From Candidatus Bathyarchaeota archaeon (GTDB lineage Archaea; Thermoproteota; Bathyarchaeia; Bathyarchaeales; Bathycorpusculaceae), in the NCBI GenBank assembly GCA_963707955.1, contig OY970176.1, forward strand, positions 1,472,001 to 1,536,000: a stretch of DNA of 64,000 nucleotides. The letters are read 5' to 3'. The translations under genes and the position numbers were made by a program. Below are positions 4,303 through 9,563 of the stretch, one piece after another (the first letter of the stretch is position 1; every line of letters starts with the position of its first letter). Under the pieces are notes generated by a model. The model was not told the DNA's origin and did no database searches. It saw only the letters and a list, made by a program, of their open reading frames with translations.

Positions 4303-5652
4303 TTGGTGATGGAAATGGCTAGTTATCCGAAGATTATTGTCACTCCACCGGGCCCTAAAGCAAGGGAACTAGTTAGAAAAGACGAAACACTCATTTCGCC
4401 TTCCTACGGTCGATTCTATCCTCTTGTCGTCGAGTCAGGCAGAGGTTGTATCGTAAAGGATGTCGACGGCAACGAGTACATCGACTTCAACTCTGGCTTG
4501 GTGTGCATGAACGTCGGCCACAACCATCCCAAAGTGGTTGCAGCCATAAAGAATCAGTGCGACCGCTTCCTGCACTACTCAAACACGGATTTCTTCTACA
4601 GGGAGGTCGTTGAGCTCGCGGACAAACTGGCTCATGTTACACCTGGAAGCCCTGAGAAGAAGGTCTATTTTGGTAACAGTGGAGCAGAAGCTATAGAAGC
4701 TGCTGTCAAGCTTGCAAAGTGGCATAGCCGCAAACAGCTGTTCATAGCGTTCACCGGCTCCTTCCATGGTCGTACAGTAGGAGCACTGTCCTTAACAGCC
4801 AGCAAGCCGACTCAGAAACGCTATTTCTTCCCGTTGATGCCTGGGGTAACTCATGTTCCTTACGGGTACTGCTACAGATGCCCGTTCAAGCTGGCACTCC
4901 CTGAGTGCCACTACTGGTGCGTTGACTTTATTGATGAGCAAGTTCTGCAGAAGTACGTTCCCCCTGAGGACACTGCTGGAATCGTGGTTGAACCCATACA
5001 GGGTGAAGGCGGGTACGTTGTGCCACCGCCAGAATACTTCCAGCGACTGAAGAAGCTTGCCGACAAGTATGGATTGCTGCTAATAGACGACGAAGTACAA
5101 TCAGGAATGGGCAGAACTGGAAAATGGTTTGCGATCGAACACTGGGGGGTTGAGCCAGACATCCTTTGCACCTCAAAGGCACTGGCTTCGGGACTACCCC
5201 TAGGAGCGACTGTAGCCAAAGCCAAAGTCATGGATTGGGTTCCAGGCTCTCACGCAAGCACGTTTGGCGGCAACCCACTGTCATGCGTCGCGGCAAGCGC
5301 AGTGATAGACGTCATAAAGGAGGAAAAGCTTCTTGAGAACGCGACGAAGGAAGGTGCTTACATCATGAAGCGGCTTACAGAACTGAAAGAGAAGAGTGAA
5401 ATCGTGGGAGACGTCAGGGGCAAGGGTTTGATGATAGGCATGGAAATCGTTGAAGACAAGGAAAGCAAGAAGCCAGCACCTCAAAAGGCAAGCGAGATAA
5501 TGACCCGCTCATGGAAAAGAGGGATCAACGTCATTACCTGTGGGGTTTCAACTATTAGAGTTGCCCCGCCTCTGATCATAGCCAGAGAGCTTGTGGATAC
5601 GGCACTGGACATAATTGAAGGCGTCACAAAAGAAGTTGAAAAGGAAAGCTAG
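4303..5652 (+). CDS. class III PLP aminotransferase (acetylornithine/4-aminobutyrate type)
   Basis: DVDGNEYIDF, SGAEAIEAA, FHGRT, EPIQGEGG, DEVQSGMGRTG, STFGGNP motifs. Confidence 0.9.
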   Translation: MVMEMASYPKIIVTPPGPKARELVRKDETLISPSYGRFYPLVVESGRGCIVKDVDGNEYIDFNSGLVCMNVGHNHPKVVAAIKNQCDRFLHYSNTDFFYREVVELADKLAHVTPGSPEKKVYFGNSGAEAIEAAVKLAKWHSRKQLFIAFTGSFHGRTVGALSLTASKPTQKRYFFPLMPGVTHVPYGYCYRCPFKLALPECHYWCVDFIDEQVLQKYVPPEDTAGIVVEPIQGEGGYVVPPPEYFQRLKKLADKYGLLLIDDEVQSGMGRTGKWFAIEHWGVEPDILCTSKALASGLPLGATVAKAKVMDWVPGSHASTFGGNPLSCVAASAVIDVIKEEKLLENATKEGAYIMKRLTELKEKSEIVGDVRGKGLMIGMEIVEDKESKKPAPQKASEIMTRSWKRGINVITCGVSTIRVAPPLIIARELVDTALDIIEGVTKEVEKES

Positions 5653-5670
5653 ATCTGCACGCGTGTTCAA

Positions 5671-6099
5671 ATGGAAATCCGTAGGCTAACCGCAGTCGAC
5701 TACAAGGAAATCGTGAAGTTTTGGTCCATTACTCAACTGCCTCATAAACCAAGGGGCCGTGACAGCGAGCAAGCAATAGCGTTGGAAATGAAAGCTAATC
5801 CAGACTTTTTCTTGGGAGCCTTCGAGCATGGGCGTCTTGTTGGAACAGTAGTCATAAGTTGTGACCTGAGAAAGGGTTGGATAAACCGTTTAGCTGTGCA
5901 TCCAGCCTTTAGAACCCGCGGCATAGCGAGGGCCCTAATCGATGAAAGCGAGAGAATCCTTAGAAAACGCGGTGTGAGACTCTTCTGTGTTTTGATTGAA
6001 GGTTCGAATGTTGCGTCGAAAAACCTCTTCAGAAAGTGCGGCTATGAGGAGCATCATGATATACTGTATTTTGCTATACTTTTTAGTAAAATAAACTAG
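5671..6099 (+). CDS. GNAT acetyltransferase with C-terminus replaced by an inserted element
   Basis: RLAVHPAFRTRGIA acetyl-CoA motif; the apparent original tail (LYF)SKRDSGDV* is found at 8818-8853 beyond the insertion. Confidence 0.85.
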   Translation: MEIRRLTAVDYKEIVKFWSITQLPHKPRGRDSEQAIALEMKANPDFFLGAFEHGRLVGTVVISCDLRKGWINRLAVHPAFRTRGIARALIDESERILRKRGVRLFCVLIEGSNVASKNLFRKCGYEEHHDILYFAILFSKIN

Positions 6100-6117
6100 A
6101 TGAGTTTAAGTATGCCT

Positions 6118-6154
6118 GTCTCAATTCCCATTGCTTGGGATTTTTCCATGCACC
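6118..6154 (-). repeat. solitary CRISPR-repeat-like unit (37 nt)
   Basis: Minus strand GGTGCATGGAAAAATCCCAAGCAATGGGAATTGAGAC: TCCCA/TGGGA hairpin followed by 8-nt ATTGAGAC handle-like tail. Confidence 0.55.
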
Positions 6155-6255
6155 TAACAGTACGGGAGGAGTAACGTGGCTAGGCGTAGTATTCCGCGTA
6201 TCGCGCCAGCATATACATTACTTAATCCCATTCGCCGTCTCTATTCGCCATCCAG

Positions 6256-6286
6256 CTTCAAATTCTTTCTGGAAGCCCAGTGCAAC
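6256..6286 (-). repeat. second CRISPR-repeat-like unit (31 nt)
   Basis: Minus strand GTTGCACTGGGCTTCCAGAAAGAATTTGAAG; GTTGCA start and AAGAATT(T)GAAG end resemble archaeal repeats. Confidence 0.45.
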
Positions 6287-6382
6287 CACCTCTCTTGAAC
6301 ACAAAAGCCAATCCTATTTGACACACAGAATAGGAAACGCTTATACAGTAGTACGTCAACTCTGTTGTACGAGGCAACTCGC

Positions 6383-6610
6383 ATGGAGAACGTAGTGAAA
6401 GTAACGCGAAGAGGACAAACCACAATCCCTGTGGAATTCAGGCAGAAGTTTGGAATCAAGGAAGGAGATCAACTGATGGTTGAAGCCACTGAGAAAGGAT
6501 TGCTCTTTAGGCCGATCCCCAGACTTGAAGACATGGCAGGCATAGACGCAAAATACGGCAAAGTGGAGGAAGTCAAGAAGCACATAGACAAACTCCGCGA
6601 GGAATACTAG
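6383..6610 (+). CDS. vapB: AbrB/MazE-fold antitoxin (VapB-like)
   Basis: VKVTRRGQTTIPVEFRQKFGIKEGD swapped-hairpin motif; directly upstream of a PIN gene. Confidence 0.88.
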   Translation: MENVVKVTRRGQTTIPVEFRQKFGIKEGDQLMVEATEKGLLFRPIPRLEDMAGIDAKYGKVEEVKKHIDKLREEY

Positions 6611-6612
6611 GC

Positions 6613-7011
6613 TTGAAAGAAGTCTTGGACACAAGATTCTTCACTGAACACTTCTACTCCGATCAGGTGCAGACAAAACAGATAACAGCGAGAAGACTGA
6701 GAGAACTAACAAGCAGAAACGAAGGAATATTGCCCACCATCGTCATCTCTGAAGTCATCCAAATAACCTGCGAAAAAAGAGGAAAAGAACTAGCAGAGAC
6801 TCGCTATCATGCGCTCATGGAAAGCGGACTCCAAATCCAAAGCTTGACCCCAACCATCGCCAAACAGGCCGGCCTCATCAAATGCCAACACAAAAACATC
6901 CCTATGGGCGACTGCATAATAGCCGCAACCGCCATAACTAGCCAAGCACGCATACTCTCTGACGACCCACACTACGACACAATAAAAGAAACCAAACGCA
7001 CATGGATCTAA
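6613..7011 (+). CDS. vapC: PIN-domain toxin (VapC-like)
   Basis: VLDT, ISE, MGDCIIAATA, LSDDPHY acidic PIN motifs; 132 aa. Confidence 0.88.
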   Translation: MKEVLDTRFFTEHFYSDQVQTKQITARRLRELTSRNEGILPTIVISEVIQITCEKRGKELAETRYHALMESGLQIQSLTPTIAKQAGLIKCQHKNIPMGDCIIAATAITSQARILSDDPHYDTIKETKRTWI

Positions 7012-7198
7012 GAAAGGAATAGACAGACAAGACATGCACGTCTTGAAAAGCCGAGAAAACCGGCACGCTTCATCTACTTATGCATCAGGCTTGCCCCGAA
7101 ATTATGGGGTAAATCTGAAAAGCTAGTGTCAGATGAGTTTTTGGCACCGAAACGATCAGTGCCGCAGATTCATGTCACACTCAATAAAGCATTGGAGT

Positions 7199-7996
7199 TC
7201 AAGATTTCACGTTCAGCTTGATCACACCGAATCCTCCTGTTCTGTTGCCGCCTACGCTCGCATACTCAGCGAAATTTGCCAGCATACACGTTATTTTGTT
7301 CCATTCGCTTTCCTGATCCTTTAGTTCATAAGTAGCCCAGCCAACGAAACCTGTTGCCTTCTTCCTCCTCATGGTTGCCAACCTCGTCCACAACTCATAC
7401 TCGCTCACACCCACGTTCTTGTCCAGCCACTCCCTATACGCCACGTACTCCTCTTTCCCAAACCGTCTCCCATCACTGAACAAGTTCCAACAACGCATCA
7501 AACCCGAAAAAACCTTTACAGCATCAGGAAACATCCAATGATAACCACTTCCCAAACTGGCAAAATACGTAGGCGACCTAAACGAAAGCCTAAACGCATC
7601 CGCTACTCCAGCTTCCTTCTCCAACTCCTCATAACTCTTACAGTTCACGCTCAGCGAAGCGATACGAAAGACCGTATCAAAAACCATCAAGCTATTCTGC
7701 TTCTGAAAGAAACTAAGCAAGAACGTCGAATACTCGTCCTTCAAAAACCTGAAACCGACCCGACAAGGAAACAACGGATCCAGCACATAACCACCCTCAG
7801 CGCGGCTCTTACTCCTAAACCGCAAAGGCGTCACGCTATAAGGCTTAGACACGTTCAACTAATGCAACAAACCAGACGCACCAGGATCAACCATCCTAAC
7901 AACATGCAACAACAAACCACGAGCCACATAACCCGTAAAAAACGGCAAAACCGTACTTTTCTCTGCATACATCTCCAAACCAATCTCAACAGGCAA
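7199..7996 (-). pseudogene. cas6: CRISPR-associated endoribonuclease Cas6 with one in-frame TAG at codon 46
   Basis: TTG start 7996, MPVEIGLEMYAEKSTVLPFFTGYVARGLLLH...LLH*LNVSKPYSVTPL; FRSPTYF; C-terminal G-rich loop VGGNRTGGFG; TAG at 7859-7861. Confidence 0.85.
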
Positions 7997-7999
7997 CTA

Positions 8000-8024
8000 C
8001 ATTCAACTCCCATATATGGGATTG
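8000..8024 (-). repeat. CRISPR-repeat-like hairpin in the cas6 leader
   Basis: Minus strand CAATCCCATATATGGGAGTTGAATG ending 3 nt before the cas6 TTG; same AATCCCA/TGGGA stem and RTTGA tail as 6118-6154. Confidence 0.55.
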
Positions 8025-8230
8025 CGATACACTGCTCTATACAAGAAAGGCGAAGTATCAACTTAAGACTTTTTTCATCTTCATTCTCTGCTGTGGTTTA
8101 TCGCGACTATCCTTCAGCCCAGTTTTTCTGCCTAGGGGTCGAGCATTTGCGACTGCCGACAAAACTGCGCCCAATAGTACAAGCTAAACATCGAATGAAA
8201 CTCATGTAAAAAATGCAGAAGTGACATAAA

Positions 8231-8428
8231 TTGAAAAATAAATCAAAATTCCTGCGCCAAGCATTAATCGGTTTCATCTTGTGGACACTATTTCTTAGTC
8301 CATACATGCTTTTTGTCGCTCATGTAAACCTTGCGCAGTATCTATGGTGGCTATTGATGGAAGGCTTACTTGTACCTCCCATTTCTATTGTCGTTATTAA
8401 CGTTACGAATAGACTAACTAAACAATAG
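8231..8428 (+). CDS. small hypothetical membrane protein
   Basis: 65 aa with two hydrophobic segments; AT-rich cargo of the element. Confidence 0.5.
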   Translation: MKNKSKFLRQALIGFILWTLFLSPYMLFVAHVNLAQYLWWLLMEGLLVPPISIVVINVTNRLTKQ

Positions 8429-8470
8429 TCACCTGCTTGTACGCGCTAGTAAAACTTAGGAGAAAACACA

Positions 8471-8698
8471 ATGACTTACAGGCAAAAAAGGCCAAGATGG
8501 TGCGAGCATCAAGACTGCATATGTCAAAGAAACATTTCTAACCAGATGTGTGGTGGTAGGCTTCCGAATCCTGTACTTCATGTGGACACCTTTAATTTTT
8601 ACCATTTATGCCTCAGAGTAGATGGTGAAGTATCTACTTTCGAGATAAATAGTACTGACTTAGACTGCTTCAGACAGATCTTTGATGCTTTAGATTAG
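8471..8698 (+). CDS. small Cys/His-rich hypothetical protein
   Basis: 75 aa; AGGAGA RBS before ATG; WCEHQDCIC...C...HLC pattern. Confidence 0.55.
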   Translation: MTYRQKRPRWCEHQDCICQRNISNQMCGGRLPNPVLHVDTFNFYHLCLRVDGEVSTFEINSTDLDCFRQIFDALD

Positions 8699-8923
8699 AA
8701 GGAAAACAAGTCTTTTAAGTCGATAGTCGCCCGCCCCTTCTCTTTTTCGGCATTTCTACCTTAGAAGCATGCGAAAGCTCTGCTTGTTTAGTTTGCTAAC
8801 CTGAAAAGATAGGCAAACTGTATTTCAGCAAGCGGGATAGCGGCGACGTCTGATCGTTTCTCACGAAAAAGCCAGATTGCCTTCCCGCGCATATGCCTGC
8901 GATGACTTCCAACAGTCTGTTCT

Positions 8924-9499
8924 CTAGAAGTCGTGCGGTTTCGCTAATACCTGTCTTATCTTTAAATCGAAGAATCTTGCAGCGTTTGCCGGGCGTATCC
9001 GAAGTGCGGTGTCGGCGCCTCGACCAGTTCCGCCGATAGCGATAATGTCCTCGTCGGTTGGAATCAAACCAGCATCTGCGGCCATCAAACTTATCTCGAC
9101 GCAGACTTTTGTTCCTTCACCCATGCGGCGGAGCACGTTTGCCATCAGCTCCAAGGGCTGGATTGTGCCGAAATCTTTGCGCACAGCTCTTTCAGCGCTG
9201 CTCAAGGCGTGAGTGCCGGCGAAGATCGTTGCTCCGTTTGCCAGGATTCTTGTCTCATACTCATCTTGCAGCTCACTCTTGCCGGGTTCTTTGAAACCGA
9301 AATAATGAGTGACGATGACAACGTTGCGGCCTTTGAACATCTCAGCTGCTTTTGCTCCCGTTTGACCGGTTGTTGAGGCAACCACGATGCCTTTTATGTC
9401 TTCCTTTTCCATGTATTTCTTCACGACTTCCAGAAGACTGTCAGTGTTTTGCTCGCCTGCTTTTGCGAAGTAGACAGTCTTTTCTTCAAAGAGACTCAT
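8924..9499 (-). CDS. pyruvate kinase alpha/beta C-terminal-domain-like protein
   Basis: VVASTTGQTG, THALS, GEGTKVCVEI-LMAADAG, GGTGRGADTA motifs; start trimmed to MSLFEEK. Confidence 0.8.
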   Translation of the reverse strand: MSLFEEKTVYFAKAGEQNTDSLLEVVKKYMEKEDIKGIVVASTTGQTGAKAAEMFKGRNVVIVTHYFGFKEPGKSELQDEYETRILANGATIFAGTHALSSAERAVRKDFGTIQPLELMANVLRRMGEGTKVCVEISLMAADAGLIPTDEDIIAIGGTGRGADTALRIRPANAARFFDLKIRQVLAKPHDF

Positions 9500-9563
9500 A
9501 GCTTCTTCCTCATCAATGACAAGCTCATAAAACTGTAGAGTTTGTTTTATAGTTTTGGAATTT

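Follow-up and report, generated by a model that had tools for sequence, protein, structure and literature searches.

A probable transposon-type cassette carrying the end of a CRISPR-cas locus in a bathyarchaeal genome without a working CRISPR-Cas system

How do a lone cas6 gene, a CRISPR repeat and a toxin-antitoxin (TA) pair come to lie in the last codons of an acetyltransferase gene, in an archaeal genome that has no CRISPR array? The question is posed by a 64,000-nucleotide (nt) stretch of a Candidatus Bathyarchaeota archaeon (assembly GCA_963707955.1, contig OY970176.1, positions 1,472,001 to 1,536,000), hereafter the window, in which an insert of 2745 bp interrupts a gene for a GNAT acetyltransferase. 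A sequence-only reading had described this insert as a non-autonomous element with terminal inverted repeats (TIRs) that moves a minimal Cas6/repeat/toxin module. We find that its structural part holds, with inverted ends, a target-site duplication (TSD) and empty sites in relatives, and that its functional part is not supported. The best explanation, to which we give a probability of roughly 0.6, is a single transposition of a non-autonomous element resembling a mobile insertion cassette, now stranded in its host.

The features that define the insertion are the following, in window positions.

5671 to 6099, plus strand: GNAT acetyltransferase gene (Pfam PF00583, 2.9e-16)
6063 to 6071: left copy of the TSD, ACTGTATTT (9 bp long; 8 bp when T6071 is counted as part of the element)
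6072 to 6120, plus strand: left TIR, AT-rich, directly abutting the CRISPR repeat
8761 to 8816, minus strand: right TIR
8817 to 8825: right copy of the TSD, ACTGTATTT
8826 to 8853, plus strand: native 3' end of the GNAT gene, displaced by the insert (SKRDSGDV*; stop at 8851-8853)

The insert, 6072-8816, sits within the last codons of the GNAT gene, so that the final eight codons and the stop (6072-6099, AILFSKIN*) come from inserted DNA. Both the repeat duplicated at 6063 and 8817 and the claim that taking out the insert restores the GNAT frame were borne out, the latter because the restored tail, YF[SC]KR[DE]Sxx[VIA]*, closes all 11 orthologues that were fetched (loci L002-L012). These 11 proteins align to the one in the window only through residue 134 or 135, and in relatives the GNAT gene is followed directly by the next gene. 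The interrupted frame is still open at its native length of 142 amino acids (aa), eight terminal residues having been exchanged for eight others, and a protein with such a replaced tail may remain functional.

Empty alleles, which the sequence-only reading had proposed to look for, were found in two genomes and one metagenome. In the closest of the related genomes, a member of the same genus (G001, locus L003; flanks 96% identical), both flanks are contiguous, and the two blastn halves share exactly 9 bp (L003 1893-1901), which fixes the insert at 6072-8816 and its length at 2745 bp. Base 6071 being a T, the data are equally compatible with an insert of 6071-8816 and a duplication of 8 bp, in which case both termini read TTGC. 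A further genome (G007) has the same empty site with flanks 92-93% identical. A wetland metagenome from another study (X5) contributes two contigs that lack exactly 2754 nt (6062->8817 and 6064->8819); with 21 differences in 409 nt, these come from relatives of about 95% identity. In this metagenome the CRISPR repeat also stands in an array, two copies being separated by a 40-nt spacer, and there are near-identical pieces of vapBC. The occupied allele is stable in two further samples of the probable source study (X2 and X3), because contigs with 0-1 differences bridge both junctions there. All population data are assembled contigs, with positions 7956-8947 uncovered in sample X4 and 8080-8700 in X5, gaps that carry no weight either way.

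The two ends of the insert form gapped inverted repeats over about 52 nt, with a score of 15 against a mean of 3.8 (standard deviation 1.75) for shuffled ends. This score was reached by none of 2000 composition-preserving shuffles and none of 2000 random genomic pairs, which upholds the imperfect inverted ends seen at the outset. The ungapped core spans 32 nt with 23 matching positions (counted from the sequence), each terminus starts with TTGC, and an N-pattern derived from the core matches just these two ends in the host genome. None of the outcomes that would have refuted the sequence-only reading occurred: the orthologues close with SKRDSxxV, relatives hold empty sites, and the two ends align better than shuffled controls.

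Several smaller observations concern these ends. In RNA folding the left end did no better than shuffled sequence (z -0.12). Its junction with the CRISPR repeat lies precisely at the place that a first spacer would occupy; an origin as a spacer matching a transposon end is unsupported, for among 43 spacers from four relatives' arrays the best score was 13, the 95th percentile of shuffled sets. Because that test gave a score only at shuffled level, array matches that reach into element positions 18-49 are ascribed to chance. An exact 14-nt match to the right terminus at host position 771632, with a left-end-like stretch nearby, is isolated and in non-paired orientation, and was likewise set aside as chance. 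A TIR-like stretch beside an IS6-like open reading frame (ORF) at G000:C1:995697 (G000:C1 being the host contig), with a score of 12.5, is noise, because a genome-wide scan yields many scores of 13-15 elsewhere.

What lies between the ends is a mosaic, again listed in window positions.

6121 to 6156, minus strand: single genuine CRISPR repeat, its sense strand ending ...ATTGAGAC, with a 5-bp hairpin TCCCA/TGGGA
about 6189 to 6251, minus strand: decayed second cas6 3' remnant (tblastn E 0.003), direct repeat D1, matching Cas6 residues 225-245 and containing a stop
6383 to 6610, plus strand: vapB antitoxin gene (AbrB/MazE fold), intact (PF04014, 3.6e-10; TIGR01439)
6613 to 7011, plus strand: vapC PIN-domain toxin gene, intact (PF01850, 3.7e-13)
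7199 to 7996, minus strand: cas6, interrupted (PF10040, 5e-15; TIGR01877, 4.2e-13, below the curated cut-off)
8078 to 8816: foreign low-GC segment, 739 bp, with no DNA relative in the genomes searched
8231 to 8428, plus strand: 65-aa ORF, hydrophobic by eye
8471 to 8698, plus strand: gene for a 75-aa Cys-rich protein, whose family occurs on viral and metagenomic contigs

The earlier inventory of this cargo needs revision. It rightly named vapBC and cas6; it overlooked the cas6 3' remnant and the stop codon within cas6, and its three repeat units reduce to one. That one, at element positions 50-85, is 97% identical to array repeats of other genomes (G294:C10, G132:C271 and others, the same genus included). 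The best candidate for an extra unit, 6237-6270, scored 12, which is chance level: 59 of 40000 random windows reached this score, and about 6200 windows were scanned for repeat-like stretches. The cas6 gene has an in-frame TAG at 7859-7861 (codon 46), followed by a 219-aa open frame; the same position holds GAG in a relative of the same genus (G003) and AGG in another relative (G029), and TAG serves as an ordinary stop in this host, as it does at 5652, where the aminotransferase gene ends. Without an uninterrupted frame, cas6 reads as a disabled gene. The nonsense codon is recent, because dN/dS against the G003 copy is 0.12 at a dS of 0.60. Both vapB and vapC are full length, with dN/dS values against G029 of 0.10 and 0.22, and their sequences mark them as an intact type II VapBC pair under purifying selection and as the only cargo of known function that is clearly intact.

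Genes for movement were sought inside the insert. As had been claimed, the ORFs tested there gave 0 matches to transposase, integrase or Cas1 families in Pfam and NCBIfam, and the same databases showed no family B polymerase, TnsB, TnsC, TniQ or effector genes among them. No tyrosine or serine recombinase lies in or beside the insert, and Rfam gave 0 matches at E<=1 over 5500-9500.

Where, then, does the CRISPR part come from? A DNA search with the whole element found matches in 99 of 301 genomes of the order, and all those listed fall within element positions 18-2014; only a few candidates per genome were scored, so that short diverged ends could be missed. The match in G029 (contig C64) is chromosomal. 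There the order is array, leader of about 220 bp, cas6 3' remnant, vapBC, cas6, with 87% identity to the insert over the remnant and vapBC and 78% over cas6; the remnant is longer there, and the leader, about 220 bp in G029, is down to 33 bp between remnant and repeat in the insert. In a second genome (G059:C50) vapBC likewise adjoins cas6. The nearest cas6 is that of G003 (contig C24), from the same genus and 87% identical. What a complete locus looks like can be seen in G294, where contig C10 has an array of seven repeats spaced about 76 bp and the genes Csa1-Cas1-Cas2-Cas4-Cas8b(TM1802)-Cas7-Cas5-Cas3; cas6 closes this complete type I system at its far end. On these comparisons, window positions 6121-8077 (element positions 50-2006) broke off from a type I (I-B-like) CRISPR-cas locus, of which they are the array-proximal end and which relatives carry in the chromosome. 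Since the order of repeat, cas6 remnant, vapBC and cas6 is the same in the chromosomal locus of a relative, the layout was inherited from the locus end and not assembled as a module. In G029:C64 (L014 1-100) and G059:C50, VapBC is wedged between a cas6 3' remnant and the full cas6, next to the array. This position suggests an old TA insertion with partial duplication of cas6 inside the CRISPR locus.

This ancestry bears on what the cargo could do. The sequence-only reading had offered an addiction or anti-CRISPR decoy unit. In a working unit of this kind the solitary repeat would be transcribed as an RNA anti-CRISPR-like decoy or a crRNA-like regulator that titrates Cas6 or Cascade, with Cas6 and VapBC travelling along. 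It could draw on the repeat's 97% identity to the arrays of related genomes, on the purifying selection that acted on cas6 until recently, on the intact vapBC, and on the finding that CRISPR-Cas can be inhibited by solitary repeat units of mobile elements, which bind Cas6 and Cas7 (PMC10651486). Yet in G029 the same gene order is found in an ordinary chromosomal CRISPR locus, the leader or promoter region is deleted, cas6 stops at codon 46, only one copy of the element came up in all searches, and the host has nothing to inhibit. We therefore hold a working decoy to be very improbable, and the claim of a minimal functional module is not supported.

That the host offers no target follows from its genome, a single 2.35-Mb contig. 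A scan for spaced 14-mer repeats found no CRISPR array and gave two coding repeat regions only. In both (G000:C1:1279911-1279994 and 2288110-2288405) the regularly spaced repeats are in-frame coding sequence, beta-helix-like by eye only. The Cas6 family PF10040 matches only the gene of the element, and tblastn with the cas proteins of G294 returned only that gene and two Cas1 fragments of about 30% identity. The four Cas1 matches in the host are all fragments or carry stops (two have internal ones), and none is near the insert. Because there is no array, no type I cas operon, and Cas1 only as fragments or with stops, the host lacks a working CRISPR-Cas system. The Cas1 sites are G000:C1:2258379-2259146, 862528-862974, 227778-228074 and 2026633-2026785, with no array or other cas genes nearby; one fragment adjoins an XPB-like helicase and an IS6-like transposase. 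They may stem from a casposon or from CRISPR loci that have degraded.

Could these Cas1 relics belong to the enzyme that did the integration, a casposase or an adaptation complex? Casposase target duplications are 14-15 bp long, against 8/9 bp here. Cas1 lies nowhere near the insert, neither Cas1 nor PolB is found within it, and all four host copies are decayed, two of them being only about 30% identical to the Cas1 of G294. In favour of the idea, four Cas1 matches exist in a host without arrays, and casposons too have TIRs and TSDs (PMC6563490). On balance we find a Cas1-type integrase hardly credible.

The right-hand part of the cargo has another origin. At about 8077/8078 the CRISPR-derived sequence meets foreign DNA abruptly, and GC content (400-nt windows) drops to 38.5-40%, against 47.9% for the genome. 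Apart from the cas6 5' edge, none of the DNA matches of this segment exceeds 43 nt in a search of 300 genomes of the order that scored a few candidates in each. Its 65-aa ORF has no relative by Pfam, PHROG, NCBIfam, Atlas or tblastn and may perhaps not be a gene. The 75-aa ORF has no name in Pfam, PHROG or NCBIfam, gave no match in a word-index search and no genome-contig relative by pattern, and no member of its family turned up in 400 other genomes of the class. Among 1.84 billion representative sequences, a search at E<=1e-3 brought up 104 homologues (18 with E<=1e-10), which share the pattern W-C...C...C-G-G...N...C, with W10, C11, C16, C27, G29, L31, N42, C47, N60 and D63 invariant and H37 nearly so. 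Relatives occur on three viral contigs, one of them beside a terminase gene, and at 80 metagenome loci; the closest (L061, 55% aa identity) stands among archaeal-type winged helix-turn-helix (wHTH) genes and ORFans, and the copy in the insert stops 12 residues short of it. None of these 83 loci has the element ends, the 65-aa ORF, vapBC or cas6. The predicted structure is confident (pLDDT 94.4, four strands plus helix), and no fold in PDB or BFVD matches it at E<=0.001. We read the right 739 bp as probably derived from a virus or plasmid, and as holding one small gene or two. Its 75-aa gene brings to notice an unnamed Cys-rich family of viruses and mobile elements that is predicted to fold confidently.

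The virus- or plasmid-like cargo raises the possibility that the insert is a fragment of a circular virus or plasmid that entered by site-specific or microhomology-mediated recombination at ACTGTATTT. The direct repeats would then be att-like cores, and the inverted ends core sites or coincidence. Insertion in the 3' end of a gene, with its tail swapped for one of the same length, is typical of integrative elements (in the description given by PMC6563490), and the missing transposase partner would also fit. Against this, no integrase is encoded in or next to the insert, the similarity of its ends runs for about 50 nt from the very termini, far longer than core-type sites, and the target flanks are unlike the element ends. 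We consider entry of a circular fragment distinctly unlikely.

A different account starts from the truncations. Here a larger autonomous transposon, with transposase and CRISPR fragment, would have inserted, and the transposase would have been lost later by internal deletion in place; this is the deletion remnant that the sequence-only reading had named as its alternative. The interior is indeed cut in several spots: the leader is reduced to 33 bp, the cas6 remnant is shorter than that of G029, the 75-aa ORF lacks 12 residues, and the junction at about 8077/8078 is abrupt; nor does the host genome hold a partner able to act in trans. On the other side, tblastn of six-frame pieces of 7997-8816 against the host genome found no transposase fragment in any frame, just as Pfam and NCBIfam found none among the ORFs; the truncations could equally precede insertion, and a larger relative was found nowhere that was searched. 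Loss in place is thus a possible account, though an unlikely one.

The favoured reading, transposition of a non-autonomous element, has its own weak points. The sequence-only reading had proposed searching with the ends for other copies and an autonomous partner, and none appeared: neither ends nor body has a second copy in the complete 2.35-Mb genome, the 300 genomes of the order hold no further copy or larger relative, and public genome, metagenome and viral contig collections contain no match to the 23-base pattern conserved between the ends. Plasmid and phage collections gave 0 matches to the whole insert, and viral contigs none to cas6. These searches were sensitive to the 23-base pattern or to BLAST-level likeness, and those of the 300 genomes scored a few candidates in each, so that short diverged ends could escape them. 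The host does contain DDE transposase genes, four IS6-like and three DDE_Tnp_1 (one with a 248-aa open frame, two shorter fragments); none of the seven loci has ends like those of the element. Because no host DDE gene has such ends, no cognate transposase or family can be named, and the case for mobility is a single event. The excision joint that the sequence-only reading had also proposed to look for was not seen in the contigs of X2-X4, from which rare variants drop out. The ends are only about 70% alike, and a short direct repeat with short inverted end motifs can also come from site-specific recombination. All of this counts against the transposition that we nevertheless prefer.

In that transposition, staggered cleavage at the last GNAT codons would have produced the 8/9-bp target duplication in one event, after the lineage split from its closest sequenced relative. 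Target duplications of 8-9 bp occur in several transposase families. A DDE-type transposase is the most likely enzyme; either an element missing from today's genome provided it in trans, or it has been lost. Because relatives have the GNAT gene followed directly by the next gene, the mosaic of CRISPR-locus end from a related archaeon and low-GC virus or plasmid DNA must already have stood between the ends on arrival. It may have been captured by two element copies flanking the locus end with later deletion, by recombination into a small virus-borne cassette, or by use of a surrogate end. In its present, CRISPR-less host the CRISPR part, with its nonsense codon in cas6 and its deleted leader, looks inert and decaying, and vapBC may help the insert persist.

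Mobile insertion cassettes have TIRs, a short target duplication and passenger genes, encode no transposase and are presumed to be mobilised in trans. The insert resembles such cassettes, and other non-autonomous derivatives of insertion sequences (ISs), in all the structural traits, and differs in that no cognate IS with the same ends was found, that it is single-copy, and that its cargo is a CRISPR-locus fragment. With neither cognate element nor second copy, it cannot be assigned to a named IS family. Miniature inverted-repeat transposable elements (MITEs) are likewise transposase-less, TIR-bounded and mobilised in trans, but they are short (<~600 bp), non-coding and multi-copy, whereas the insert has 2745 bp, at least four genes and one copy. 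The MITEs of this host end in GCGCGCATGC..., as does a DDE_Tnp_1 element near 389 kb, and these ends are unrelated to the TTGC... ends of the insert. A composite transposon would have two full flanking IS copies; here only ends of about 50 bp are shared, with no IS bodies. Casposons share the TIRs, the TSDs and the link to CRISPR, and require Cas1 and PolB, both missing from the insert; the Tn7-like CRISPR-associated transposons (CASTs) require TnsB/C, TniQ and an effector complex, none of which it has.

CRISPR parts on mobile DNA are already known, as solitary repeats (PMC10651486) and as arrays or I-B systems (PMC6563490). RNA anti-CRISPRs (Racrs) and other solitary repeat units on viruses and plasmids are similar in being lone repeats on mobile DNA with counterparts in the arrays of potential hosts (PMC10651486); the repeat of the insert is instead the leftover first repeat of a truncated array, beside cas6 and with its leader deleted. 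Integrated elements of archaea also carry CRISPR components, whose proposed source is host loci that have shed cas genes. Those described in PMC6563490 are tens of kb long, of integrase or conjugation type, and bear arrays of 69-96 spacers or a complete type I-B system, against 2.7 kb and one repeat here. CreTA (PMC9458426) is a TA pair in a CRISPR-cas locus, and the source loci in G029 and G059 do have a TA pair beside cas6; CreTA, however, is an RNA pair under Cascade control through ectopic repeats, and the pair in the insert is the protein pair VapBC, with no shown link to the repeat. A TIR/TSD cassette with repeat and cas6 was not found in the titles and abstract openings of the literature searched, which is no proof that none is in print.

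The insert thus provides a fully delimited case of a small transposon-type cassette that carries a piece of a CRISPR-cas locus into a CRISPR-less genome. It offers a concrete instance of one way in which CRISPR-linked TA pairs, orphan cas6 genes and solitary repeats may become scattered in archaeal genomes, and a caution that such orphan CRISPR parts should not be taken for functional modules. It reveals no new mechanism: the element is single-copy and mechanistically ordinary, and its CRISPR parts are apparently inert. A bolder view, which we find quite improbable, is that an unknown archaeal transposon family with TTGC... ends and 8/9-bp duplications spreads CRISPR-locus ends (first repeat, cas6 and TA pair). 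Where a host has a matching type I system, the solitary repeats and orphan cas6 genes seeded by this family could function as crRNA-like regulators or RNA decoys, and the copy here would be a recently disabled, stranded one.

The host genome shows further traces of CRISPR and mobile DNA. A second CRISPR relic (G000:C1:1427000-1427140), 51 kb upstream of the insert, consists of one repeat and a leader about 85% identical to the array leader of G003; it is flanked by GCGCGCGC tracts, in a region rich in repeated mobile DNA. The four IS6-like (DDE_Tnp_IS240) frames (G000:C1:1267439-1268479, 1716865-1718070, 2028364-2029272 and 994938-995660) are divergent, without recognisable inverted ends, and may be domesticated or decayed. 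The families IS1595 and ISL3 are absent from the host, and Transposase_mut gave only weak matches, inside the IS6-like ORFs. The MITE family of this genome, about 205 bp long with inverted ends GCGCGCATGCTTGTTCC..., has at least nine copies (for example G000:C1 378627-378831, 430607-430810, 532696-532907, 597764-597970, 631826-632027 and 1108228-1108440). The DDE_Tnp_1 (IS4/IS5-type) element near 389 kb has the ends of this family and is its likely parent. Self-BLAST brought out at least two more repeat families of about 200-260 bp.

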